Assembly (NCBI GenBank): GCA_002772815.1
Contig: PFDQ01000043.1
Coordinates: 15,955-65,970 of the forward strand
Reading direction: 5' to 3'
From: Candidatus Peregrinibacteria bacterium CG10_big_fil_rev_8_21_14_0_10_42_8
GTDB lineage: Bacteria; Patescibacteriota; Gracilibacteria; Peribacterales; Peribacteraceae
DNA: 50,016 bases
How positions within the stretch are numbered: the stretch's first letter is position 1; the number at the start of each line of letters is the position of its first letter. The notes under the pieces were generated by a model, which was not told where the DNA came from, made no database searches, and saw only the letters and a list, made by a program, of their open reading frames with translations. The translations under genes were made by a program, and so were the position numbers. Shown one piece after another: positions 2,227-50,016 of the stretch.

Positions 2227-5200
2227 ATGAAAAAAAAGTTTGTTGTAATTGGTATGGCGTTTAGCGCCCTTTTGCTAATTATTTTTACATTGCAGTCACA
2301 ATGGGGAAACTTGAAGGGGCAATCGGGATGGACTGAGTCATGTAGTATAGCGGCTAACCCTGATGGATCATGCCCCTATGGATATGGTGACCAAGGGGGA
2401 GTGTGTTATTCCTCTGATGGGACATTATGTACATGTACTAACGGAGCTAGTGGTTTTTGCGGAGCGGGGAGTTGTAGTTGTTCAGAGGTTGAGCCAGCAA
2501 GAGGAACGTGTTGTGACACAGCAACATCACCAGGTTCACCAAGTTATTTAACAGAACAAGGCTGTACAGATATGCAAGGAATATGGCATCAAGGGCCGTA
2601 TAATATGGCACTTTGCTTTTCTATCACATCGTCATCAGCATCCTCAGTAGTGTTAAGCTCGTCTGTCCAAAGCTCTTCCGTTGCGCCACGATGTGGCGAT
2701 GGAACAGTAGACCAAGGAGAACAGTGTGATGATAGTAATACTACAGATAATGATGGATGTTCTCGTTCGTGTAAAAACGAGAGGTGTGGGGATGGTATTA
2801 AACAATTAAATGAAGAATGTGATGATGAAAACACAGTGACTGCAGATGCGTGTACGAATGCTTGCACGGTAGCAAAGTGTGGAGATGGTGTTCTCCGTTC
2901 AGGGTTCGACCCCCAAACGAACGTGATCTATGAGCAGTGTGATGATGGTAATACAAACAATGATGATGGATGTGATAGTAGCTGTAAGATAGAACGATGT
3001 GGAAATTACGTTATTGAATCAAACGAAATGTGTGAACAGATCAATAATGGGTGGGTGCAAGATACGACATGTGGAAATGGTCAGTTTTGCTGTGCAGAAT
3101 GTACTACTTGTCGGATAGCGTGCCCCTTTCTTGATTCAAATGGCAGCGGTGAGATTCCTGATGGATATGGTATTCGCGGAAGGGGTGGGGAATGTGGTTC
3201 GCCGTTGTGTTATACAAGTTGTAGTTCTGCAGTATTCGAACGATGTGCAGAATGCAGTGGTTGTGGCGAGTCAGACTCTGTAGAAAGCTGCGAAGAAATG
3301 TGTGGAGATAAACCTGCGTCAGACCCATGTTGGGACGATTGTCATGAGAATAAGATATGTAATGCAGCCTGTGAAGACCCAGATGGTGATGGTATAGGGT
3401 ATTACATGGAAAACTTGTCATGCGTGAGTGGTGTTGGCGATTCCCCTGCAACGTGTCAGTTTATTACGAGTAGTAACACAGGAGGAGGTTCAGGAGGCCA
3501 AAATGGAGGGGGAAACGGAGGGCAGAATGGTGGAAATAATGGCGGAGCAAGTGGCGGAGGTGAGGGTGGTGACACCGGTGGAACGGATACAGGCGGAACA
3601 GACGGCGGTGCGTCCGGCGGTGATACGGGTGGAGCATCTTCTGCATCGGCATCTTCGATAAGTTCAACTCCACACTGCTACGAAACAGGCGAGTGTTCTA
3701 CTTGTCCCAGTTGTTTCAGTTCGTGTTTCTGCACTATGCATATCAATGCGCAAAACCAAGGGTTACCCCCGCCAAGTACCAGCCGGATTGAAAGCACTTG
3801 TACGGCTCAATGTGTCGATAGCCCACCACCTAATTCTTCCTCAAATGGAAATACATCAAGCGCTTCTAGTAGGTCTAATACCTCTAGCACTTCACGGTCA
3901 AATGGATCGGTGCCTTCTAATGGAAATAGCAGTTCTGTTATTGTTGCTTTCGATTATCATTATGAATGTATGCAGCAAAGCTGTGTACTTGTTCTGACTG
4001 CGGGGCAAGATACATGTGCTACTGACAAAGATTGTTTGGGAGCTAAGTCGTCAACGTCTGCAAATCAGTCATCGTTAAGCTCAGGGTCGTCAGGTTCAGA
4101 TCAATCTTCATCATTCTCTGATAGCTCGAATAATTCATTTAACTTCTCTTCATCATTCTCTGATGGCTCGAATAATTCATCTAACTTCTCTTCATCGCTA
4201 TCTTATAGTTCAGATACTTCTAATTTCTCTTCATCATTCTTAAGCAGTTCTATTAATTCTTCAGATATATCGAATGTTTCATCATCATCAGAATTCTCAG
4301 ATTCTTCCGCTTCCTCAGGTGTATCTACTTCTTATACCTTTAGTCAGCCTTCTTTTGCATCGTATTCTTCTGAGAATTCACAGAATTCAAATTCTAGTAT
4401 TGTGCAAGAATCATCTACATCTAACGTATCAAGCACGTCGTTTAGCATTCGCTTCTCTTCTGATTCTGAATCAAGCACATCATCACGAGGTAGTGCAAGA
4501 AGTTCGTTTGCAAACAGTACAATCATCGTCATTGCAGAAGATGATGATGGAGACGGAGACGGCGATGATGGCTTCCGAGATAATAACAATCAGTGGGTTT
4601 TGAGGCCATCTAGCTTCATTGCACAAAACGTAAACGGTACATTAGTAGCTGCAGCATCTATGTGTGGTAATGGTATTCTTGATGTTGGCGAAGAGTGTGA
4701 CGACAGCAATAGACGTGACAACGATGGTTGTTCGATATCGTGCCTTCTTGAGATTGGTATTTGTGGGGATGGAAAAGTACAAAGCCTTCTAGGAGAGCAA
4801 TGTGAGGGTGGTATTGATTGTCAGAAGTGTCGATTTGTGAGTCAGACATGTGGAGATGGCATAGTAGACCCAAGAGAAGAATGTGATAGTGGCGCGTTAA
4901 ACTCTTTGTCACCAAATGCTGACTGTCGCCCAGACTGTAGTTTATCTCGATGTGGTGATTCAGTGCTCGATACAACGGAGCTCTGTGATGATGGAAATCG
5001 ACTCAATAGTGATGGGTGTGACAGGTATTGCAGACTAGAAACAACAGTTCTTGCACAGCAAAATAGCAATAATTATGAGCAATTACAGGCTCAGATGTTA
5101 GCGAATCAACAGTTTGGCTTCCCTCAATACGCAAACTATCAACAGTTGCCCTATCAGTTGCCACTTGCACAGCTTCAACCACTTATACAGAACCAAGGTC

Positions 5201-5295
5201 CAATAGGTGATACAGGTCCTGCTGCAGTAGCAGTAGCAGCATCAGGAATGGCTGCAGGAGTCGGCTGGATACGAAGGAAGAAGCGAAAATCGTAG
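2227..5295 (+). CDS. Large cysteine-rich repeat surface protein with signal peptide, Gly-rich and Ser-rich low-complexity regions and a C-terminal sorting-signal-like tail
   Basis: Signal/TM segment MKKKFVVIGMAFSALLLIIF. About 8 copies of CGDGxxxxxEqCDDgNxxxxDGCxxxC (Myxococcus-type cysteine-rich repeat pattern), in two blocks at roughly nt 2690-3010 and 4660-5040. The tail is IGDTGPAAVAVAASGMAAGVGWIRRKKRKS. Confidence 0.85.
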   Translation: MKKKFVVIGMAFSALLLIIFTLQSQWGNLKGQSGWTESCSIAANPDGSCPYGYGDQGGVCYSSDGTLCTCTNGASGFCGAGSCSCSEVEPARGTCCDTATSPGSPSYLTEQGCTDMQGIWHQGPYNMALCFSITSSSASSVVLSSSVQSSSVAPRCGDGTVDQGEQCDDSNTTDNDGCSRSCKNERCGDGIKQLNEECDDENTVTADACTNACTVAKCGDGVLRSGFDPQTNVIYEQCDDGNTNNDDGCDSSCKIERCGNYVIESNEMCEQINNGWVQDTTCGNGQFCCAECTTCRIACPFLDSNGSGEIPDGYGIRGRGGECGSPLCYTSCSSAVFERCAECSGCGESDSVESCEEMCGDKPASDPCWDDCHENKICNAACEDPDGDGIGYYMENLSCVSGVGDSPATCQFITSSNTGGGSGGQNGGGNGGQNGGNNGGASGGGEGGDTGGTDTGGTDGGASGGDTGGASSASASSISSTPHCYETGECSTCPSCFSSCFCTMHINAQNQGLPPPSTSRIESTCTAQCVDSPPPNSSSNGNTSSASSRSNTSSTSRSNGSVPSNGNSSSVIVAFDYHYECMQQSCVLVLTAGQDTCATDKDCLGAKSSTSANQSSLSSGSSGSDQSSSFSDSSNNSFNFSSSFSDGSNNSSNFSSSLSYSSDTSNFSSSFLSSSINSSDISNVSSSSEFSDSSASSGVSTSYTFSQPSFASYSSENSQNSNSSIVQESSTSNVSSTSFSIRFSSDSESSTSSRGSARSSFANSTIIVIAEDDDGDGDGDDGFRDNNNQWVLRPSSFIAQNVNGTLVAAASMCGNGILDVGEECDDSNRRDNDGCSISCLLEIGICGDGKVQSLLGEQCEGGIDCQKCRFVSQTCGDGIVDPREECDSGALNSLSPNADCRPDCSLSRCGDSVLDTTELCDDGNRLNSDGCDRYCRLETTVLAQQNSNNYEQLQAQMLANQQFGFPQYANYQQLPYQLPLAQLQPLIQNQGPIGDTGPAAVAVAASGMAAGVGWIRRKKRKS
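4105..4270 (+). repeat. Tandem ~42-nt repeats inside the Ser-rich region
   Basis: Two near-identical units (tcttcatcattctctgatRgctcgaataattcatYtaactt) encode SSSFSD(S/G)SNNS(F/S)NF. Two degenerate units follow. Confidence 0.7.
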
Positions 5296-6201: not shown

Positions 6202-7611
6202 ATGAAAATTATCCCCCACGGTGCGGCTCTGGAGGTTACTGGAAGCTGCCATGAAATTCAGGTTGATATAGACGGCGTTACAAAGAAGATTCTACTTGAT
6301 TGTGGGCTCTTCCAGGGACACAGACAGGAATCAGCAGTAAAAAATGCAGAGTTTGCCTTCGAGCCATCAGAAATTGATGCGATGATCCTTAGTCATGCGC
6401 ACGCAGACCACGTTGGACGTGTTCCAGTTCTGTCGAAGAAGGGGTTTGAGGCAAAAATTTTCTGTACATACGCAACAAAAGATCTTGCAGAAGTTATGCT
6501 CCAAGATAGTGGATTTATTAACGAGAAAGATGAAGAATTTTTCTGTAAGTATCTTGCAAAGTCGATGATGGAGTGTGAAGGTCCACTTTATACACAAGAA
6601 GATGCAACAGAATGTATGAGGCATTTTGTCGGTCAAAATTATAAAGAATGGTTCGATGTCATTCCTGGTATCCGTGCAATGTTCCTTGATGCAGGTCATA
6701 TTATTGGAGCAGCAATGGTAGTGCTTGAAATTATGGAAAATGGAACAAAGAGAATGATTGGTTTTACCGGTGACCTTGGACGAAATATGTTGCCAATTAT
6801 CAGAGACCCCGCTGACATGCCAGAAGTCGAAGTGCTTATTTGCGAAAGTACATATGGAAATAGGGAGCACGAAGATATCGCAACTGCAAAACACGCACTA
6901 AAAGATGTCATTATCCGAACAGCAAAGCGTGGAGGTAAAGTGCTTATTCCTGCATTCTCTTTAGAGCGTACACAGGAAATTGTATACGACCTTCATGTGT
7001 TATGGGACGCAAAGGATATTCCAGCAATTCCGATTGTCATTGATTCTCCACTCGCAACACGAGTGACAGAGGTGTTCATGAAACACCCAGAATGTTATGA
7101 CAAAGATATGTATGAAAATTTCTTAGCAAAAGCACATAACCCATTTCAGTTTTCACTCGTCAGGTATACACAAAGTACAGAGGAGAGTAAAGAGCTAAAC
7201 GGTACACCAGGCCCAATGATTATTATGGCAGGAAGTGGAATGTGTGAAGCAGGTCGTATTCGTCATCATCTCAAAAATGAGATTGAAGATGATAGAAATA
7301 CCATTCTTGCTGTTGGGTATATGGCAGAAAATACACTTGGTCGTAGTATTATTGATTCAGATGTTACAGAGGTAAAAATCTTTGATAAGATTTATCAGAA
7401 GAAAGCAGAAACCGTATACATCAATGCGTACTCTGGTCATGCAGACATGTCAGACCTCGATAATCTTGTGTGCAGTACAAAAGGAGTGAAGAAGGTAATC
7501 CTTGTACATGGTGAAGAAACTCAAATGCTACCATTCGCTGAACGTATCCGTCACGTGTGTAAAGACATCGAAGTGATCATGCCAGAACGTGATCAGGAAA
7601 TAGAGGTGTAA
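6202..7611 (+). CDS. MBL-fold beta-CASP family ribonuclease (RNase J/CPSF-like)
   Basis: MKIIPHGAALEVTGSCHEI, the metallo-beta-lactamase motif LSHAHADHVGRVP, and a later ...GHAD.. motif with about 470 aa length typical of beta-CASP enzymes. Confidence 0.8.
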   Translation: MKIIPHGAALEVTGSCHEIQVDIDGVTKKILLDCGLFQGHRQESAVKNAEFAFEPSEIDAMILSHAHADHVGRVPVLSKKGFEAKIFCTYATKDLAEVMLQDSGFINEKDEEFFCKYLAKSMMECEGPLYTQEDATECMRHFVGQNYKEWFDVIPGIRAMFLDAGHIIGAAMVVLEIMENGTKRMIGFTGDLGRNMLPIIRDPADMPEVEVLICESTYGNREHEDIATAKHALKDVIIRTAKRGGKVLIPAFSLERTQEIVYDLHVLWDAKDIPAIPIVIDSPLATRVTEVFMKHPECYDKDMYENFLAKAHNPFQFSLVRYTQSTEESKELNGTPGPMIIMAGSGMCEAGRIRHHLKNEIEDDRNTILAVGYMAENTLGRSIIDSDVTEVKIFDKIYQKKAETVYINAYSGHADMSDLDNLVCSTKGVKKVILVHGEETQMLPFAERIRHVCKDIEVIMPERDQEIEV

Positions 7612-7657: not shown

Positions 7658-7756
7658 GCATTCCTTTTTTGTCGGGAAACAGGCCCTGCAGCAGTTGTAG
7701 TTGCAGCATCTGGAATGGCTGCAGGAATTGGTTGGATGAGACGAAAGAGAAAGTAG
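7658..7756 (+). pseudogene. Orphan 3' fragment encoding only a C-terminal sorting-signal-like tail (no start codon)
   Basis: Translates to ..ETGPAAVVVAASGMAAGIGWMRRKRK*. This is a paralog of the tail at 5215-5295 and shares the identical 15-mer ggaatggctgcagga. The frame is closed by TAG at 7655-7657 with no ATG/GTG/TTG in between. Confidence 0.6.
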
Positions 7757-9949: not shown

Positions 9950-11057
9950 TAAGTAGGTTGTTATAATTCTCTAACATTCGTTCTTGTGAAAATAGTGACG
10001 ACACTCGTTTTTGAGCATTACGCCCAAGCAGATCGCGAAGTTCTTTATTCGTCAGAAGTGTATACAGGTTGCCTGCGAGCTGTGAAGAATTGCCAGATAA
10101 ATGAAGTAATCCACTTTCGTTATGAATTATTTGTTCGGCAATGCCGTAGCAGTTACTTGCAGCTATTGGTAGTCCGCATGCCATTGCTTCAAGGATGACA
10201 AGTGGAAAAGATTCGATAAAAGAGTTACACACATAGATGTCACTGCATGCATAGTATTCAAATGGATCTTTTTGCTCTGGAAGCACATGGAATCGATCAA
10301 TCATCCCAGAGTCCTTTGCTGGCTTTAGTGCTTCTTCAAAGTATTGCGCATATTCTGGGTGTAGTTTACCAGCAATAAGAAAATGAGCATTACAGTCTCG
10401 TGGCAGTTTTTCAAGAGTCTCAAGAGCGGCGAGTATGAATTCTTTTTGGCCCTTACGTGGGCAGATAGATCCAATCAAAGTACTGACGAGTGCAGTGTCG
10501 GATATGCCAAACTGTTGTCGTAGTGATGCAGTATTATACTGCTGCATTTTTTGCTGAATACCATCGATATCAATGCCGTTATGTATCATATGCATGTTTC
10601 CTGTATTCCATTGTGTATATACTTTTTTTGTATAGTCAGAGACAAAGACAATTGCCGAGACCAGTGCAAAGGTATCCGGTGTGATATACGGGTTATTTCT
10701 CATAATCTCATGGCATTCAGACTCCTGAATTATCCATATAATATTTTCCGCGTCTGGACGCTCTGTATGTAATAGCTGAATGATACGAGCACCAAGAAGT
10801 GTACTGACAACAATGAAATCAGGATTGTGAGACGTAACACCTGGTTCAAGCACAGAGGAGTCAGCATCGTTGCTATATAGCAATGGATCGACATGAGTTG
10901 GAATGTCCGCTTCAGCAGCGAGTTTTCGTAATGGACCATTGCTTGGCATAAATAATTCGACAGTGTGACCTTCTCTCTGAAAGAGCATGGCAATATGCAA
11001 TATGTGCAAAGGAGCCCCTTCGAGTTCGGCGTTATGGGAGCAGAAAGCAATGTGCAT
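9936..11057 (-). CDS. Glycosyltransferase family 4 (GT-B)
   Basis: N-terminal NAELEGAPLHILHIA and C-terminal ESFPLVILEAMACGLPIAAS (Glycos_transf_1 signature). The 3' end overlaps the convergent gene by 14 nt. Confidence 0.85.
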   Translation of the reverse strand: MHIAFCSHNAELEGAPLHILHIAMLFQREGHTVELFMPSNGPLRKLAAEADIPTHVDPLLYSNDADSSVLEPGVTSHNPDFIVVSTLLGARIIQLLHTERPDAENIIWIIQESECHEIMRNNPYITPDTFALVSAIVFVSDYTKKVYTQWNTGNMHMIHNGIDIDGIQQKMQQYNTASLRQQFGISDTALVSTLIGSICPRKGQKEFILAALETLEKLPRDCNAHFLIAGKLHPEYAQYFEEALKPAKDSGMIDRFHVLPEQKDPFEYYACSDIYVCNSFIESFPLVILEAMACGLPIAASNCYGIAEQIIHNESGLLHLSGNSSQLAGNLYTLLTNKELRDLLGRNAQKRVSSLFSQERMLENYNNLLTTLT

Positions 11058-11115
11058 ACAAAGAGTGGAATTGGCTACTGATTATACAGCATATGTAGAG
11101 TATTCTGATACTCCA

Positions 11116-26473: not shown

Positions 26474-27931
26474 CTAGTATTTCACAGTAAACGGAAAAGC
26501 GGCTGTGTCTCCTTCTTTGCGGAAAAGTACGCTATAACCTTCTGGTTGTGGCAATGAAGAGGAACAAGGGCGTGATGTGATAGTGAAGTGATTCGCAATG
26601 TACGCAAATGTTTTTTGAGAGAGGAGCTGCTCTTCTGCACGGTCGCTAATCTCGTAGGTATTTCCTTTTGCAATGATGACGTCTGCTGAAGAGAATGAGT
26701 TTAGTTGCTTCTCAATAAGAAGAGGATGGTGATACACAATTGCTTCTGGGCCTGTATAAACAAAGAAGTTCAGAGGACTATGCCGCATAAATGGCATGTA
26801 TGGTCGCTCTTCAACGAAGAAATACCTATCGATACTACACGCGTCCAAAATATCATCAATGGCACCTGCAGTATATATGTTCAGTTCATCTATCCTCTGC
26901 TGTTCGCGGAGTCTTGCACTATAAACTGGAAAGCCATCACTGAGTGGAATCATGAATATTGTAAGGGTCACCAAAAAAAGTGTGGTGTGTAGGAGGCGAC
27001 GCGAACATGATCGGAGAAACACAAAAAACAGTGCACAGTACAGTGGCACGAGTATGACGAAATGATTATTGACAGGGTAGCCGCGCAGGTTTGCTGCAGT
27101 GCATGCTATATAGAGAGCAATGCAAATGTAGAAAAGACGATCCCTATTGTGCACAACAACATCGAAAAGAATAGTAAGCAGTAACACTGGAAGAAGATAT
27201 GAGTACTGGACAAGGTATAACCACACGAGGTCTAGTTGCAGCCCACGCTGCCACAGTGGCATAGACCGCGCGATATGATGGCCAAAGTTTGATGGAAGAT
27301 ACGTTCCGAAATACCCCTCTGCGAAGCCAAAAACAAACATTAATATCACACCAACAATTGCGACAATGCCAATAGGAAAAACAAAGAAAGAAACAAACTC
27401 TTTTCTACGAGGAAGTAGGAGAAGCGCACAGCCAAGAAGGACAAGAAAGAATGGCTCTTTAAAGCTGATACTCAAAAAAAGACACAGAGTAAGTAGACTC
27501 ACATATGTGAGAGTACGACGCGGTGGGAATTGCGTTAGGAGCAAAACATAGAGTATTCCAAAAAATGCACCATAGAGTTCTACTTGCCATGCGCCAGCAG
27601 TAAATGCAGTATATAATGATATGACGACACCAAACAGTGTTGCGAGAATGGTTGTAGATGTGTTGCGTGCATTGCGGTGCACAGTCAGTCCAAAAAGCAT
27701 AGGAATAAGAAGGACAATCATTCCATTACATATATTGCCAAGGAGTCCACTACCAAACAGTGCAAGAGATGCTGCACTCAAAAGGTAAATGGCAGGAGGT
27801 TTTGTGTCGAAAATGTCTGTGTACAGTTGTAGATGATTCAGTATTCCTTGCCCGACGGTAAAGTAGTATGTCGCATCACCGGCATATGCACCTTGAAAGA
27901 AATACCATGCTTGTGCAAGTAGGTGGTACAT
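26474..27931 (-). CDS. Polytopic membrane glycosyltransferase (ArnT/PMT, GT-C-like)
   Basis: 485 aa with about 11 TM segments. The N-terminal loop YAGDATYYFTVGQGI...DTKPPAIYLL resembles GT-C acceptor-loop motifs. Confidence 0.6.
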   Translation of the reverse strand: MYHLLAQAWYFFQGAYAGDATYYFTVGQGILNHLQLYTDIFDTKPPAIYLLSAASLALFGSGLLGNICNGMIVLLIPMLFGLTVHRNARNTSTTILATLFGVVISLYTAFTAGAWQVELYGAFFGILYVLLLTQFPPRRTLTYVSLLTLCLFLSISFKEPFFLVLLGCALLLLPRRKEFVSFFVFPIGIVAIVGVILMFVFGFAEGYFGTYLPSNFGHHIARSMPLWQRGLQLDLVWLYLVQYSYLLPVLLLTILFDVVVHNRDRLFYICIALYIACTAANLRGYPVNNHFVILVPLYCALFFVFLRSCSRRLLHTTLFLVTLTIFMIPLSDGFPVYSARLREQQRIDELNIYTAGAIDDILDACSIDRYFFVEERPYMPFMRHSPLNFFVYTGPEAIVYHHPLLIEKQLNSFSSADVIIAKGNTYEISDRAEEQLLSQKTFAYIANHFTITSRPCSSSLPQPEGYSVLFRKEGDTAAFPFTVKY

Positions 27932-28038: not shown

Positions 28039-28404
28039 ATGAAACTCAAAGAAATCGCAAAACTTACGTGGCTACCAGTTGTCGGCGCATCACTTTGCTG
28101 CCTTAGTCCAGTGATCATCGTCCTGTTTGGTCTTGGAACAGCAGCATTTGCCAGTTCTCTTGCAGATACACTCTACGGAGACTACAAGTGGTTCTTTAGA
28201 ATAGGTGGGCTCTTCCTTTTGTTGCTGTCAGTCTTTTATCACTATCGAAAGAAGGGTGTCTGTTCGCTCGACCAAGCGAAGCGTCATAAGAACGAAATCC
28301 TCAACACAATTCTTATTACCGTCTTTGCAGGAGCAATAGGATACGTCTTCTTCTTGTATGTTGTCGTGCACTACGCTGGTGTGTGGTTGAATTTGTGGGT
28401 TTGA
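28039..28404 (+). CDS. MerT-like three-TM membrane protein with a CC motif in TM1
   Basis: VVGASLCCLSPVIIVLFGLG resembles the MerT TM1 vicinal-Cys motif. A loop Cys (KKGVCSLD) lies between TM2 and TM3. Confidence 0.5.
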   Translation: MKLKEIAKLTWLPVVGASLCCLSPVIIVLFGLGTAAFASSLADTLYGDYKWFFRIGGLFLLLLSVFYHYRKKGVCSLDQAKRHKNEILNTILITVFAGAIGYVFFLYVVVHYAGVWLNLWV

Positions 28405-28413
28405 TCTATCAGC

Positions 28414-28592
28414 TTGTAACTTTTGGGATCAAAAGTTACCAAAAATCTTAACCACTGATATGAACGAAGAAATACAGGAAGAACGTACTGTGCGCTCCTC
28501 GACTAAGCTTGCTGCGGCAACTTAGCTCTTCGTCACTAAGAAGAAGTGCAGCGGTGTGATCTTCGTCCATACTACAGTGGCTAGAAGATGGA
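28414..28592 (+). repeat. Structured repeat, copy A (5' hairpin module + core + 3' module)
   Basis: Hairpin GTAACTTTTG-ggat-CAAAAGTTAC (28416-28439). The core CAAAAATCTTAACCACTGATATGAACGAAGAAATA...GTGCGCTCCTC is shared with copies B and C. The 3' module GCGGTGTGATCTTCGTCCATAC is identical to copy B. Confidence 0.8.
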
Positions 28593-28913
28593 TCACCCCC
28601 ACTTCTTCCCCCACTTACAAAAACCTCCAAAGACAGTCTGTAGGTCTGCTCCTTTTTCAGTAATGCTGTATTCAATGCAGATAGGCTTACCATCGGTTAC
28701 TGTTCGTTCGATGAGGCCTTCTTCTTCCAGTTCTGTCAGCCGCTCGGAAAGAATACGAGAGTTGATCTCTGGTAGCGCATCTTTAATTTCGCAAAACCGC
28801 ATTTTCTTTGTATCTGCGATACATCGTAAAATATGCATTGCCCACTTTTTTGAGCAAAAATCAATGATTCCGTAGATCGGACAATCGCACGATGATGGTT
28901 GTTTTTTAGGCAT
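28593..28913 (-). CDS. HxlR-family (MarR-like winged helix) transcriptional regulator
   Basis: CPIYGIIDFCSKKWAMHILRCI...RFCEIKDALPEINSRILSERLTELEEEGLIERT is a typical HxlR signature. Confidence 0.85.
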   Translation of the reverse strand: MPKKQPSSCDCPIYGIIDFCSKKWAMHILRCIADTKKMRFCEIKDALPEINSRILSERLTELEEEGLIERTVTDGKPICIEYSITEKGADLQTVFGGFCKWGKKWG

Positions 28914-28921
28914 GTACGGTT

Positions 28922-28927
28922 AGTATA
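28922..28927 (-). promoter_or_regulatory. -10 box TATACT
   Basis: Lies 8 nt upstream of the HxlR ATG (28913). Confidence 0.4.
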
Positions 28928-28977
28928 CATAGATATACCTCCAAAAACTACTTAATTACTATTAAATACATGTTTTA

Positions 28978-28997
28978 CAAAAGTAACCGACTAAGCT
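28978..28997 (+). repeat. Deleted fragment (D) of the structured repeat
   Basis: CAAAAGTAACC is joined directly to GACTAAGCT. In copy A these two strings are separated by 61 nt. Confidence 0.5.
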
Positions 28998-29031
28998 AGA
29001 CTACGTCTGTTATTTCCTACCCCTAATACTT

Positions 29032-29187
29032 ATGGGATGTTGTTCAAAGGACAATCATTGCTCTGATGAGAGCAAGAAATGTTCAGAAGGTTGTACTTGC
29101 GATACATGCAAGGAATGCGCTGAAAAGTGCAAAGAGAAGTGTGATGAAAAGTCTTCAGAGCACAAAGGTGATAGTTGTTGCGGTTAA
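29032..29187 (+). CDS. Metallothionein-like cysteine-rich small protein (51 aa, 12 Cys), absent from the ORF track
   Basis: My own translation is MGCCSKDNHCSDESKKCSEGCTCDTCKECAEKCKEKCDEKSSEHKGDSCCG*. It has CC, CxC and CxxC motifs. It is divergent from the HxlR gene and next to the MerT-like gene. Confidence 0.65.
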   Translation: MGCCSKDNHCSDESKKCSEGCTCDTCKECAEKCKEKCDEKSSEHKGDSCCG

Positions 29188-29284
29188 GCAGACTCTTCAT
29201 CGTCAAACAGGGCATCCTGGGTGGGGTGTTCTGTTTTTATGTAGCTTCGCTATCTTCATTTGTGCCTTTTTTGATAAATGATTT

Positions 29285-29600
29285 GTAACTTTTCAGATGA
29301 AAAGTAACCAAAAATCTTCGCCACTGATATGGACGAAGAAATAAAGAGAGAACGAAGCGTGCGCTCCTCAGTAAACTTCGTCGCTAAGTACGCGTGAAGC
29401 GGTGTGATCTTCGTCCATACGACAGTGGCTGGACGAGCGAGAAGTTAAGGGTGGGTTGGCAGACTGCATGTTTGAGGGCGAAGAATAAGATATGAGTAAA
29501 AGGAATACAGCGACGAGAGCCAGTCGCTGTAAGCGAACGCAGTGACCTGGGCGAGGAGCGCAAAGGAAAAAGGGGCAAAGGAATAGCGGAGTTAATATAT
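29285..29600 (+). repeat. Structured repeat, copy B (longest copy: hairpin + core + 3' module + about 170-nt extension)
   Basis: Hairpin GTAACTTTTC-agat-GAAAAGTAAC (29285-29308). About 85% identical to copy A over the first ~85 nt, judged by eye. The extension contains GAGGAGCGCA, complementary to the core GTGCGCTCCTC, plus a tail shared with copy C. Confidence 0.8.
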
Positions 29601-29622
29601 ACAAAGAAACCTCTTTAATTTA

Positions 29623-29651
29623 TTGACCCCCCTTGCTCTTCTCTTTATATT
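29623..29651 (+). promoter_or_regulatory. Sigma-70-like promoter TTGACC-N17-TATATT for the ribosomal protein cluster
   Basis: Both hexamers are near consensus with exact 17-nt spacing. It lies about 100 nt upstream of the rplC ATG. Confidence 0.55.
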
Positions 29652-38018: not shown

Positions 38019-38636
38019 ATGACTGCAAAAACCGCTAGACCAGACCGCAAAAAAGGTGACCGCCGTCGCCAGAAAGCCCCTTCTGAATTTGAAGAGACAA
38101 CACTCACGATCGATCGTGTGACACGTGTTGTGGCTGGAGGTCGTCGTATGCGTTTCCGTGCAGTTGTTGTGGTAGGAGACAAAAAAGGACGCGTTGGTAT
38201 TGGAACAGGGAAGTCAGGAGAGGTACAAGGCGCTGTGCAAAAAGCAACAGCTGTTGCAAAGAAGAATATGATCCGTGTACCACTTGTTGATGGAACAATT
38301 CCACATGAAATTGATCATAAGTTTAAGGCATCACGCATCCGCCTTCTTCCTGCACGTGTAGGAACAGGAATCATTGCTGGAGGTGCACTTCGTACAGTTT
38401 TAGAGCATGCTGGAGTACAGAACGTTTTGAGTAAGCGTTACGGTACAAACAACAAGCTCGTAAATGCTCAGTGTGTTATCGAGGCTTTGCAGCTCTTCCG
38501 TGGTGTAGAAGTAGGACCACTTAACCCAGAGCCAATAAAGAAGGAAGATGAAGAAGAACTTCCAGAGAACATCAAGATTACAGAAGTAAGCAAGAAATCT
38601 GTTGATCGCGAGGGGAACTTGAACAAGAAGAAGTAG
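38019..38636 (+). CDS. rpsE: 30S ribosomal protein S5 (C-terminal extension)
   Basis: IDRVTRVVAGGRRMRFRAVVVVGDKKGRVGIGTGKS. 205 aa. Confidence 0.95.
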   Translation: MTAKTARPDRKKGDRRRQKAPSEFEETTLTIDRVTRVVAGGRRMRFRAVVVVGDKKGRVGIGTGKSGEVQGAVQKATAVAKKNMIRVPLVDGTIPHEIDHKFKASRIRLLPARVGTGIIAGGALRTVLEHAGVQNVLSKRYGTNNKLVNAQCVIEALQLFRGVEVGPLNPEPIKKEDEEELPENIKITEVSKKSVDREGNLNKKK

Positions 38637-38692
38637 TTTCTCTTTATTCTTTACATAAAGTAGCTTCACTATTCTTTTTTTGATGATTCTTT

Positions 38693-38855
38693 GTGACTTT
38701 TGAAAGATCAAAAGCAACTTCGTTAATTCCTTTTGTCCCTTTTTCCTTGCTTAGCGACGCAGGTTTACCGAGGAGCGCACAACTCTGTTCTTTTATTATT
38801 TCTTCGTTCATATCAGTGGCTAAGATTTTTGGTTACTTTTCATCGGAAAAGTGAC
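38693..38855 (-). repeat. Structured repeat, copy C (inverted relative to A/B; hairpins at both ends; internal deletion variant)
   Basis: The reverse complement reads GTCACTTTTC-cgat-GAAAAGTAAC CAAAAATCTTAGCCACTGATATGAACGAAGAAATA...GTGCGCTCCTCGGTAAAC..CGTCGCTAAGCAAGGAAAAAGGGACAAAAGG. A second hairpin, GTGACTTTTG-aaagat-CAAAAGCAAC, lies at 38693-38718. Confidence 0.75.
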
Positions 38856-38863
38856 AAAAGAGT

Positions 38864-38869
38864 TATAAT
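38864..38869 (+). promoter_or_regulatory. -10 box TATAAT
   Basis: Consensus hexamer 6 nt upstream of ATG 38876. Confidence 0.45.
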
Positions 38870-38875
38870 TCTGTT

Positions 38876-39385
38876 ATGAAAAAAGCTCTTATCATCATCG
38901 CAAACAGTGGATACCAAGACCACGAATACGCAGGAACGCGAAAGGGTCTTGAGGAGGCAGGTTTTGAGATTGTTCTTGCTGCAAAAGACGCAGGTCCATG
39001 TAGTGGATCTCTGGGTGGAGCAGAACATGCAACGGTCTCACTTCGTGATGTCGATGTTTCCGATTATGATACTATCGCATTTATTGGAGGCCCTGGGGCA
39101 GCACTTCTCGCATCAGATGCTGATGCATTAAAGATAGTAAATGACGCCTACAGAGCAGATATGCCACTTGGAGCTATTTGTATTGCACCAACTATTCTTG
39201 CAAAAGCACAGGTGCTCGAGGGTAAGAGGGCAACCGTATGGAACGAGGACGGTTTACAGAAAGACCTCCTCGAAACCTACGGAGCAGAGTACACAGGAGA
39301 ATCTGTTACGATTGACGGAAACATTGTCACAGGAAATGGACCAAAAGCAGCAGAGGAATTTGGGATAGCATTGGCGAAACTATAG
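38876..39385 (+). CDS. DJ-1/PfpI family protein
   Basis: ALIIIANSGYQDHEY..., nucleophile elbow LGAICIAP, and IVTGNGPKAAEEF. Confidence 0.85.
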   Translation: MKKALIIIANSGYQDHEYAGTRKGLEEAGFEIVLAAKDAGPCSGSLGGAEHATVSLRDVDVSDYDTIAFIGGPGAALLASDADALKIVNDAYRADMPLGAICIAPTILAKAQVLEGKRATVWNEDGLQKDLLETYGAEYTGESVTIDGNIVTGNGPKAAEEFGIALAKL

Positions 39386-40603
39386 TTACTCAAACTTTAG
39401 GCGTCCAAATTGTTGCACCCATACATCTTCGTAGAGCCCGATGCCAATTTCTTCAAATTCTGGTCGAAGCATATTTGTTCGATGACTAGGGGAATTTTTC
39501 CAATCTTGCATAACTTCTTTTACCGTAAGTTGTCCTTTTGCTAGGTTCTCTCCAAGAGAGAAGATTGGTTCACAACTACACTGTTCGTTTCCTTTTATGA
39601 GGTAATTTGAACCAATTTCTAGCGATCCACCTAAGTCAAATTGCTGAGAGCAGGAACAGCTATCTGGGTTAATATCAAGGTATCCACTTCTTCGAATGCG
39701 GTCGACATAGCTCAGTCCTTCTGGTGTGTAGTGGCTAAAGTATCCTCTTTCTGCCATATCTTTTGCATGTCTCTGCCCAGAGAGTTCGAGATAGTAATTA
39801 GACCGTAGTGGTCCAAGATTATACTCTGTTCGAAAATCGTTTACTGCTTTAATGAGATCATTCCGTGTTTGTGATGCGAGGTTTGTACGAGAGGTGAGGA
39901 GCTTCAGAGTGGCATTCTTAATGCTTGTCGGCGTTGAAAGAGACATAAAAATACTTGGTTTTTTATAGAGTGATTCAGTATCTTCTTCAGTAGCAGTAGA
40001 ATGCAGCGGTATAAGCGTGGGCTGTACAGTCACAACGCCTGTTGGCACCATTTTGGCAGGAATGAGCCCATTTATTCCTTGAAGTGATGGCTCTGCCTTG
40101 AGCAGTGTATACACCGCTTTTGCAGCTTCTACATGGGAAATACGTAGGTTAGGATGGAGAAGATGTGGGCTATTGTCATCAGTAAAAAGATAATATCTCC
40201 ACGATAGACCAGCGTAAGGTCCTTCATCATTCTGTGTATCAATATCTGTGTATTGATATGGCAAATTTGTTGTGAGATGAAATGCAATACTCATCATTTT
40301 AAGAAACTCAATACGTGAGACAGAATGATCGGGAAAGACAAACCCTGTGTCTCCCACAGTAATAATTCCTTTTTCGATACCTTTTAAAATATGAGGGGTA
40401 TACCACTGTCCATCAATAACATCTGGATACTTTCCATTACTACGTGTGCCAAGTTCCACTTCAACACCAGCATTCTTAAGGAGGATCATGACTGCCTCAG
40501 ATCGTTTTACATACGAAACTGGTTCAGTTTCAGCTCCGAAAGATTGCGGAATACTACTGAAGAGAAAGATGCCAACAAAGAGGAAGGAATAGAATTTTCG
40601 CAT
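39386..40603 (-). CDS. Secreted SLH-like + CAP/SCP domain protein
   Basis: Signal peptide MRKFYSFLFVGIFLFSSIPQSFG. SLH-like YPDVIDGQWYTPHILKGIEKGIITV. CAP motifs RHAKDMAERGYFSHYTPEG and GENLAKG...WKNSPSHRTNML. It is a paralog of the protein at 5296-6087. Confidence 0.8.
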   Translation of the reverse strand: MRKFYSFLFVGIFLFSSIPQSFGAETEPVSYVKRSEAVMILLKNAGVEVELGTRSNGKYPDVIDGQWYTPHILKGIEKGIITVGDTGFVFPDHSVSRIEFLKMMSIAFHLTTNLPYQYTDIDTQNDEGPYAGLSWRYYLFTDDNSPHLLHPNLRISHVEAAKAVYTLLKAEPSLQGINGLIPAKMVPTGVVTVQPTLIPLHSTATEEDTESLYKKPSIFMSLSTPTSIKNATLKLLTSRTNLASQTRNDLIKAVNDFRTEYNLGPLRSNYYLELSGQRHAKDMAERGYFSHYTPEGLSYVDRIRRSGYLDINPDSCSCSQQFDLGGSLEIGSNYLIKGNEQCSCEPIFSLGENLAKGQLTVKEVMQDWKNSPSHRTNMLRPEFEEIGIGLYEDVWVQQFGRLKFE

Positions 40604-40613
40604 GAATCTATAT

Positions 40614-40622
40614 ATTCTATCA
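40614..40622 (-). promoter_or_regulatory. Extended -10 box TGaTAGAAT
   Basis: Lies 10 nt upstream of ATG 40603. Confidence 0.35.
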
Positions 40623-40719
40623 TAAATTCTGCATTTCTGCCAGAGCACTCTGATCCGCTGAAAATATAGTCAAAAATCTACCCAGAAATGCCTTTACGTC
40701 AGCAAATCTAGTCAGTACC

Positions 40720-41172
40720 ATGTCGCAGATTATGCTACACACTTTAAAGCCAGCACCGGGTTCTCGAAAAAAGTCTATTCGCCGTGGACGTGGTAGCAGC
40801 GCAGGCCGCGGTACAACTGCTGGTCGTGGAACAAAGGGATATGGATCTCGCGCTGGTTCGAGCACTGCTCGAAACTTCGAAGGAGGTCAGACACCACTTC
40901 TTATGCGTCAGCCGAAGCTTGCTGGTTTCAAAAACCCTAACCACAAGGAGTACGAAGTGGTAAATGTTGGAGATCTTGAGCTTAAAGTAAAAGCAGGAAC
41001 GTACGACGTGAAGGATTTGAAAGTTCAGAAACTTGTGAGCACAAACAAGCCAGTAAAACTCCTAAGCCGTGGAGAAGTAAAAAAGAAATTTGAGATCACT
41101 ATCAACGCTGCTTCAAAGGCTGCAATCGCTGCAATTGAAAAGGCTGGTGGAAAGGTCACAGTTCTAAAATAA
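40720..41172 (+). CDS. rplO: 50S ribosomal protein L15
   Basis: LHTLKPAPGSRKKSIRRGRGSSAGRGTTAGRGTKG. Confidence 0.95.
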   Translation: MSQIMLHTLKPAPGSRKKSIRRGRGSSAGRGTTAGRGTKGYGSRAGSSTARNFEGGQTPLLMRQPKLAGFKNPNHKEYEVVNVGDLELKVKAGTYDVKDLKVQKLVSTNKPVKLLSRGEVKKKFEITINAASKAAIAAIEKAGGKVTVLK

Positions 41173-49915: not shown

Positions 49916-50016
49916 AATGACAATGTTAGGGAACCTCTGAAAAACACCACTCAAAGCAGACTCCATTTTTAGCATAGAAATTGGTAAAATAGTGGCGACT
50001 CTTAGCCATTCCCTTC

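Follow-up and report, generated by a model that had tools for sequence, protein, structure and literature searches.

A probable decaying copy of a non-coding palindromic repeat between rpsE and a DJ-1 gene in a Peregrinibacteria genome

Introduction

REP/BIME elements and REPINs, the latter being inverted REP doublets mobilised by RAYT Y1 transposases, are found in enterobacteria and Pseudomonas. Other bacterial MITEs and palindromic repeats include Correia/NEMIS in Neisseria, ERIC/IRU in enterobacteria, RUP and BOX in pneumococcus and Nezha in cyanobacteria. CPR bacteria such as the Peregrinibacteria have genomes of about 1 Mb that are thought to be poor in repetitive DNA. The names Bertels & Rainey 2011, Nunvar et al. 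2010 and Ton-Hoang et al. 2012 are reportedly those attached to the REP/BIME/REPIN elements.

Here we describe a repeat family with three copies, termed A, B and C, in a 50,016-nt stretch of a Candidatus Peregrinibacteria contig (the window), copy C lying between rpsE and a DJ-1 gene. Like REPs and REPINs, the family is extragenic and non-coding, occurs in tens of copies, either singly or in inverted doublets folding into long hairpins, shows mosaic and nested arrangements, prefers gene 3' ends and convergent spacers, has no evident target duplication and is under strand-specific constraint, as for a single-stranded intermediate. It differs in that its units are branched and about 180 nt long, whereas REPs measure 20-40 nt, in that its doublets pair two diverged subfamilies rather than like copies, and in the U-rich tract that follows each long hairpin. 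Its likeness to bacterial MITEs lies in a length of 100-500 bp, inverted ends, the lack of an ORF, long hairpins, modular or deletion derivatives, effects on neighbouring promoters and terminators, and many dispersed copies whose presence or absence differs between relatives; however, we found neither a target-site duplication nor a parent IS with the same ends, and the compensatory changes seen across deep subfamilies are not predicted by plain MITE decay.

Two further systems invite comparison. The palindrome-associated elements derived from IS200/IS605, with the guide RNAs encoded in their ends (omega/reRNA and HEARO), share subterminal hairpins in place of simple inverted ends, strand asymmetry, the lack of duplication and a structured non-coding part of 150-300 nt, but the Rfam models for omega/reRNA and HEARO gave no match and the two end hairpins of our element are unlike in sequence. 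Intrinsic or bidirectional terminators likewise present a stem and then a U-rich tract after genes, the dimer corresponding to one module per strand, but the stem here is multi-branched and 135 nt long, and many of the neighbouring genes possess an ordinary terminator of their own. By this comparison the family appears most like the REP/BIME/REPIN elements and the bacterial MITEs, yet it fails defining features of both. We found no description of it in the full-text literature searched and none in Rfam, and the family appears to be undescribed.

Results

Three defective repeat copies in the window

A 44-nt core, AAAAGTWACCAAAAATCTTNNCCACTGATATGRACGAAGAAATA, occurs three times in the window, at 28431-28474 (+), 29300-29343 (+) and 38797-38840 (-), where none is expected by chance. 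Chance or low-complexity resemblance is ruled out by the finding of 0 matches in 100 dinucleotide-preserving shuffles, with up to 3 mismatches allowed, and by dozens of homologous copies elsewhere. The copies and the adjacent promoter are as follows.

28414-28592, + strand: copy A, a single complete a-type unit (a-unit profile E=5.5e-52)
29243-29615, + strand: copy B, made up of an outer motif (29243-29257), an a-type unit (29283-29429), an inverted partial b-type unit (29458-29565) and an end module (29563-29595)
29623-29651, + strand: promoter of the rplC operon, TTGACC-17-TATATT, just outside copy B and kept in loci L019 and L070
38637-38861, - strand: copy C, between rpsE and the DJ-1 gene

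Repeat searches aligned B and C as inverted arms of 80 nt with 88% complementarity (29274-29353 against 38787-38866), and A and C as inverted arms of 71 nt at 86%. The first-pass annotation had read C as a third, inverted and rearranged copy of a mobile-element-like repeat, and had B (+) and C (-) flanking the rplC-rpsE block as inverted repeats; both descriptions stand, the arms enclosing around 9.4 kb. Its start for copy B, at 29283, is too far in, the actual start being at ~29243, at the outer motif GTAGCTTCGCTATC. All three copies belong to a dispersed repeat family and are defective. Copy A fills the space left between two convergent genes, MerT-like and HxlR; copy B lies upstream of the rplC promoter and misses ~85 nt before its end module, the right-hand breakpoint falling in nearly the same place as that of C, in the loop of the second small hairpin. 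Both still fold better than shuffled sequence (z=-3.8 for A and -3.6 for B). Within one genome the copies diverge by 12-25%, and there is therefore no sign of a recent burst, a point against reading the repeat as mobile.

Several features of the surrounding DNA are recorded here in their own right. A metal-type cassette (28039-29187) lies directly upstream of the rplC promoter and is kept in L019, L068 and L070; it comprises a gene for a MerT-like membrane protein (weak Pfam match), a divergent gene for an HxlR-family regulator and a 51-aa Cys-rich ORF, MGCCSKDNHCSDESKKCSEGCTCDTCKECAEKC..., which has no Pfam match and looks like a metallothionein. The rpsJ gene does not adjoin rplC in the window. 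Between the SNase-like and MerT-like genes is a 485-aa ORF without a Pfam match (26474-27931, -), which is absent at the orthologous position of L019 and has no repeat copy at either border. A 42-nt tandem repeat in four copies (4105-4269) lies within a 1036-aa ORF, and a 73-nt direct repeat with 81% identity links the 3' end of that ORF (~5209-5281) to ~7676-7748, about 2.5 kb downstream and beyond the end of the neighbouring 481-aa ORF.

Architecture of the intact element

The intact element is ~430 nt long (range 350-460 in 16 distinct full-length copies) and is an inverted pair of diverged ~180-nt units, with a small palindrome at the centre where they meet. Each unit starts on its central side with a branched hairpin of ~135 nt, continues with a U-rich tract and closes on the outside with P1, a small AU-rich hairpin. 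The parts follow one another in this order.

First: the small AU-rich hairpin P1, TTGTAACTTTTGAAAGATCAAAAGTAAC, then an A-rich linker
Second: the long hairpin GCCACTG-ATATGAACGAAGA ... TCTTCGTCCATAC-TA-CAGTGGC, enclosing GTGCGCTCCTC, a variable hairpin and CTTCGTCACTAAG
Third: the short central palindrome AGACGATCGTCT
Fourth: the reverse complement of the diverged second unit, closed by GGCAGACTG...CAGTCTGCC or GTCAGTTGC...GCAACTGAC
Fifth: TTGATTTTTTC, the second small hairpin GTCCCTTTTTTATCAAGAAAAAAGGGAC and the end module AAAGGAATAACGAAGTTAC

Terminal inverted repeats are present, with GTAGCTTCGCTATC... facing ...GAATAGCGAAGCTAC and the ~180-nt halves mutually inverted, and these outer motifs bracket some of the copies. 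Units across the family measure 140-210 nt and contain several helices; single units of ~150-175 nt also exist, copy A being one, and doublets combine diverged subfamilies (a+b, a+c and c+b). An intact dimer is present in the same contig, which is 70,989 nt long in public metagenome data as ERZ27293400 k141_586780, 3.4 kb past the end of the window (L077 14890-15239). A second, GC-rich repeated module (…CAGAGCTCCCCTCTCCTGG…GGAAGGAGAGGGGTTGGGGGTGAGG…) was observed inside or beside several copies (L039 ~560-640; L041, L045, L015 and L011; L068 10905-11010) and looks like a separate small hairpin repeat family.

Copy C is an internally deleted remnant

Against this architecture copy C, with the neighbouring promoter box, can be divided as follows.

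38637-38692, - strand: outer terminal stretch, adjoining the rpsE stop codon (38634-38636)
38693-38718, - strand: terminal P1-type hairpin GTGACTTTTGAAAGATCAAAAGCAAC, earlier annotated as the 'left' hairpin
38719-38749, - strand: end module, reading CAAGGAAAAAGGGACAAAAGGAATTAACGAA on that strand and made up of the outer end motif and the right arm of the small hairpin in the second unit
38750-38831, - strand: remnant of an a-type unit, with core GTGCGCTCCTC, CGAAGAAATA and CCACTGATATG and linker CCAAAAATCTTAG
38832-38855, - strand: P1 hairpin of the a-type unit, GTCACTTTTCCGATGAAAAGTAAC, whose pairs covary across the family
38864-38869, + strand: -10 box of the DJ-1 gene, TATAAT, 6 nt before the ATG at 38876 and abutting the repeat

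On the minus strand, C runs from the hairpin GTCACTTTTCCGATGAAAAGTAAC through the linker to CCACTGATATGAACGAAGAAATA, GTGCGCTCCTC, CTGCGTCGCTAAG, CAAGGAAAAAGGGACAAAAGGAATTAACGAAG and the second hairpin. An internal deletion junction at ~38749/38750 joins the end module to CGTCGCTAAG, so that the purine-rich tail AAGGAAAAAGGGNCAAARG comes directly after it, which is the fusion of core part to tail that the first-pass annotation had described. That annotation had also assigned the tail to the far end of B alone: within the window this holds, with occurrences only at 29563-29581 (+) and 38730-38748 (-) against 0 expected, but in the family at large the tail is the normal terminal module of intact members, where the end module reads ...ATCAAGGAAAAAGGGACAAAGGAATAACGAAGTTAC. 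The hairpins noted at 38693-38718 and 38832-38855 are both present and are the element's own terminal hairpins; the boundary set at 38693, however, falls short, as homology extends to ~38637-38645, right after the rpsE stop codon. In this outer stretch the end motif GTAGCTTCACTATTC lies at 38660-38674 on the plus strand, and the sequence matches the reverse complement of the right end of B, GGAATAGCGGAGTTAATATATACAAAGAAACCTCT, together with B's left motif at 29243-29257. The stretch is organised in the same way in L068, and an extra terminal hairpin after the end module is also found in L009, L014, L026 and L068.

Copy C therefore retains the first ~130 nt of one unit and the terminal ~100 nt of the element (end module, extra hairpin and outer motif), and it lacks the centre-proximal half of the long hairpin, that is the 3' half (TCTTCGTCCATAC..CAGTGGC), and the entire second unit. 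In an nhmmer comparison with the a-unit profile only positions 37-168 match (E=3e-30). Internal deletions bounded by stem feet occur in other members as well (L019, L028, L013 and L056). With a folding z of -0.28, C folds no better than shuffled sequence, and its structure is accordingly lost. We read copy C as a probable decaying member, with an internal deletion, of a non-coding palindromic repeat family specific to this lineage of marine Peregrinibacteria; it has no demonstrable present function and at most supplies sequence upstream of the DJ-1 -10 box.

A 55-aa ORF (38644-38811, -) lying wholly within copy C is publicly annotated as a gene. Protein coding was considered and rejected, as this reading frame runs into stops after 21-22 codons in A and B, and the ORF is almost certainly spurious. 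ORFs of 80-145 aa likewise overlap repeat copies at other loci.

The rpsE/DJ-1 junction in relatives

Relatives were found through S5 homologues, which also confirm a marine Peregrinibacteria/Peribacteraceae lineage as the origin of the window, and their nucleotide identity to the window was measured over rplC-rpsE. The spacer after rpsE differs among them.

L070/L071, 91% nucleotide identity: 54-nt spacer without repeat, followed by DJ-1, CAP (-) and rplO; TTATAAT, 6 nt, ATG
L068/L069, 82%: 447-nt spacer with a much fuller two-unit element (~440 nt)
L072/L073, 79%: spacer filled by a 75-aa ORF; no repeat
L076, 76.5%: 14-nt spacer; no repeat
L075, 71% (S5 67% at the amino-acid level): DJ-1/CAP present; a single unit of another subtype in the spacer, in opposite orientation
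L074, 69%: contig ends just after rpsE

In five relatives, the most distant of them at 67% S5 identity, rpsE and rplO are separated by DJ-1 and CAP, and three of the five have no repeat at the rpsE/DJ-1 junction; the insertion is therefore old and independent of the repeat. The element in L068 shares the position and orientation of C and is near-identical to it at the DJ-1-side end. The repeat at this junction is thus a later, dispensable occupant, orthologous between the window and L068, which was either lost or never gained in the other relatives. Its presence in the window, L068 and L075 and absence from L070, L072 and L076 requires several losses or several gains, which counts against the reading preferred here.

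These comparisons bear directly on the proposal that active recombination between B (+) and C (-) inverts the rplC-rpsE block, or else that the two copies are scars of the DJ-1/CAP insertion. The 80-nt inverted match at 88% around the 9.4-kb block is what one would look for under such a proposal, and elsewhere a copy does sit at the edge of a 4.4-kb strain-specific insertion and rearrangements do truncate some copies (L012 compared with L011). However, rplC-rpsE is colinear in 6/6 relatives, and L070/L071, L072/L073 and L076 carry DJ-1 and CAP without a repeat at the junction. Moreover, no recombinase gene is present in or beside the block, which holds ribosomal protein genes only, and an inversion would part the rplC promoter from its operon. 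We consider the proposal highly improbable. The first-pass annotation had raised both halves of it, namely that the repeats could mediate inversion or might mark past insertion, and had suggested a comparison of synteny as the check; that comparison revealed no inversion, and insertions in relatives with no repeat at the junction, the very outcome that the annotation had named as refuting the link to the synteny break.

The DJ-1 promoter was likewise annotated at the edge of the element. The box at 38864-38869 does abut the repeat, but it is not part of it, as the same TTATAAT is found in the window and in the repeat-free L070; L068 and L076 have TATACT. The spacing of -10 box, 6 nt and ATG recurs in four lineages (window 38864-38878, L070 9845-9861, L068 ~11048-11068 and L076 ~6445-6461), and the DJ-1 gene appears to be leaderless, the predicted arrangement leaving no room for a ribosome-binding site between box and ATG.

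The gap between rpsE and rplO is itself a variable island (L068 11611-18776, L069 11611-18972, L072 1576-5045), with additional ORFs of 1268 and 1057 aa, or of 75, 112 and 301 aa, in some relatives; no repeat copy was found at the junctions of those extra ORFs. The rpmD gene (L30) was not found between rpsE and rplO in the window (38636-40720) or in any relative, in line with the lack of L30 known from CPR bacteria.

Distribution and genomic setting of the family

A search with a 19-base core pattern returned 52 metagenome stretches, representing ~39 distinct real copies, with chance matches at 5 loci. Scanning one genome per species (GTDB representatives) returned 10 stretches, all from the fragmented marine MAG Candidatus Peregrinibacteria SI074_bin159. 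Scans of viral contigs gave no match, and a phage origin was set aside. Profile searches of all fetched loci brought the family to ~43 unique intergenic loci, with a copy density of ~1 per 15-20 kb by rough extrapolation from four loci in 71 kb. Where both flanking genes were called, the spacers were convergent in 13 cases, tandem in 16 and divergent in 3 (n=32, from crude ORF calls), and the elements mostly occupy the spacer so fully that only 0-30 nt separate them from the genes on either side. These genes are mostly housekeeping (topA, murB, gltX, a mevalonate operon, transaldolase and tRNA), and the family is therefore not limited to accessory-gene junctions.

We observed turnover at individual sites. 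At the B locus the repeat measures ~350 nt in the window, its orthologue in L019/L068 is 309 nt long and L070 retains a solo hairpin of ~70 nt, and at the copy A locus L019 has an unrelated ~100-nt hairpin spacer instead. None of the rpsE/DJ-1, B, A and DprA loci yielded a clean filled/empty pair, relatives differing by replacement or by a larger indel. No consistent target-site duplication was found in the flanks of full-length copies, whose ends are heterogeneous; one 14-nt direct repeat flanks the L009 copy. No transposase with matching ends was found in ~0.6 Mb of sequence, the genes beside the copies being housekeeping, and neither tnpA, tnpB nor iscB adjoined any copy examined.

A neighbouring IS was considered as the parent and rejected, its 25-nt inverted ends, TAGGGAACCTCTGAAAAACACCACT, being unrelated to the repeat. 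The left end of this IS occupies part of the last 90 nt of the window (49927-49951), and the element continues as L077 11411-13593; it encloses a DDE_Tnp_1 gene and an rve-integrase gene and is absent from the close relative L078.

Compared with its closest relative, L078, the contig carries a strain-specific block of 4.4 kb (L077 14884-19243, ~3.4-7.7 kb past the window end) that separates the stop codon of dprA from the terminator hairpin of that gene. Exactly at the left edge of the block is an intact repeat dimer (L077 14890-15239); the block also holds a 65-aa ORF, a 967-aa ORF without a Pfam match and a fragment of a DDE transposase. In L012 the sequence equals the left flank of L011 and then breaks off inside a unit into a different gene. 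A general tendency of repeat copies to sit at indel junctions is thus conceivable; it could arise because both favour the same permissive sites, or through recombination at the repeats.

A branched structure under strand-specific constraint

Covariation was counted formally over 28 distinct a-type units and 37 proposed pairs, read from the centre outward, and the subfamilies were compared by direct reading. Standard pairs make up 99.2% of the cells in the 37 pairs of the 28 units, and pairing falls to 34-55% when the partners are slid by 1-3 columns. Double-sided changes occur in 7 pairs, a number reached in 0/500 shuffles; as the copies are mutually related, these are counts of covariation and not probabilities, though the signal is consistent in its direction. 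At two pairs G·U predominates (23/28 copies at one, 17/18 at the other), where the opposite strand would have A·C mismatches, and the outward orientation is the more stable in 34/38 units (mean -59.0 vs -52.0 kcal/mol). The subfamilies differ in the sequence of the outer stem but preserve it by compensation, as GCCACUG/CAGUGGC, GGCAGACU/AGUCUGCC, GUCAGUUGC/GCAACUGAC and GUCAGUCGC/GCGACUGAC, and the variable hairpin differs between them in sequence, in length and even in presence. Among the inner junction helices, GUGCCC/GGGUAC versus GCACGC/GCGUGC is a candidate for further covariation. In the outward orientation every unit ends in a stem and a U-rich tract (CAGUGGCUAAGAUUUUUGG, CAGUCUGCCUUGAUUUUUUCG, GCAACUGACUUGAUUUUUCG), which in a-type units begins 5-6 nt after the stem. 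The compensatory changes and the strand-specific G·U pairs indicate selection on a single-stranded form. This structural conservation fits a functional RNA as well as mobility based on single-stranded DNA.

Several of these features would be expected if the units were functional structured RNAs, acting either as a multi-copy small RNA or as modular, portable terminators of the intrinsic type or insulators, which as dimers would work in both directions, with C pseudogenised. The stem and U-rich tract at every unit's outward end, the more stable outward fold in 34/38 units, the compensatory changes with strand-specific G·U pairs and the excess of convergent-gene spacers are all in keeping with such a role. 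With respect to position, 39 units lie downstream of a gene reading into them, 16 do not and 10 are undetermined; however, single units between tandem genes take the right orientation in 5 cases and the wrong one in 3, which is not significant. An own canonical terminator already precedes the element at L009, at L030 and at the Cys-rich 51-aa gene before B, a simple terminator pattern scan calls none of the long hairpins, and the unit starts have no conserved promoter. The copies also decay freely, A, B and C all being defective. Furthermore, G·T is tolerated in single-stranded DNA as well, and a strand signal of this kind therefore does not single out RNA. Rfam searches at gathering and at permissive thresholds, covering the window and ten loci with intact copies, gave no family match and only chance-level permissive matches. 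We therefore regard a functional RNA as an unlikely, though not negligible, explanation.

Other identities were considered and rejected. No tRNA or tmRNA identity was found for the repeat, the Rfam matches elsewhere on the loci searched being a tmRNA and two tRNAs only. On inspection, mismatches between copies are not confined to adenines, as they would be in the template and variable repeats of a DGR, and the hairpin ends are unlike the RYYYAAC / GTTRRRY core sites of integron attC.

Discussion

We favor the reading, at a probability of roughly 0.7, that the repeat is a non-autonomous palindromic element resembling MITEs and REPINs and that copy C is an eroded relic of it without a present role. 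The family would spread in the manner of MITEs or of the REP-REPIN-BIME type, moving or recombining without being autonomous, possibly via a single-stranded hairpin intermediate, and would colonise intergenic spacers, convergent ones especially. There it would persist for long periods and then erode through deletions that end at hairpin feet and loops, which presumably arise by slippage across the hairpins. At the locus studied here, the DJ-1/CAP insertion would have created the rpsE/DJ-1 spacer much earlier than the element arrived, the element would already have been in place in the common ancestor with the L068 lineage, and C would since have lost one unit and half of the other. This relic accounts for neither the DJ-1/CAP insertion nor an inversion.

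The repeat has practical consequences for work on these genomes. It would confound gene calling, spurious ORFs of 55-145 aa being predicted within its copies, as well as assembly and binning.

For the lineage itself, tens of copies of a 430-nt element, structurally unusual for CPR, are kept despite the small genome, and their branched structure is held by compensatory changes in at least four subfamilies and on one strand only, pointing to an RNA function or to movement based on single-stranded DNA. More tentatively, and with the odds against it, CPR bacteria could have in the ~180-nt unit a structured single-stranded nucleic-acid module of a new class, which would be a portable RNA device or else serve as substrate for a new form of hairpin-recognising transposition. 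If the former is true, the unit might serve, for example, as a mobile terminator or insulator, or as a guide-like RNA for an as yet unrecognised recombinase; if the latter is true, it would belong to a new hairpin-recognising single-strand system that propagates heterologous inverted pairs.
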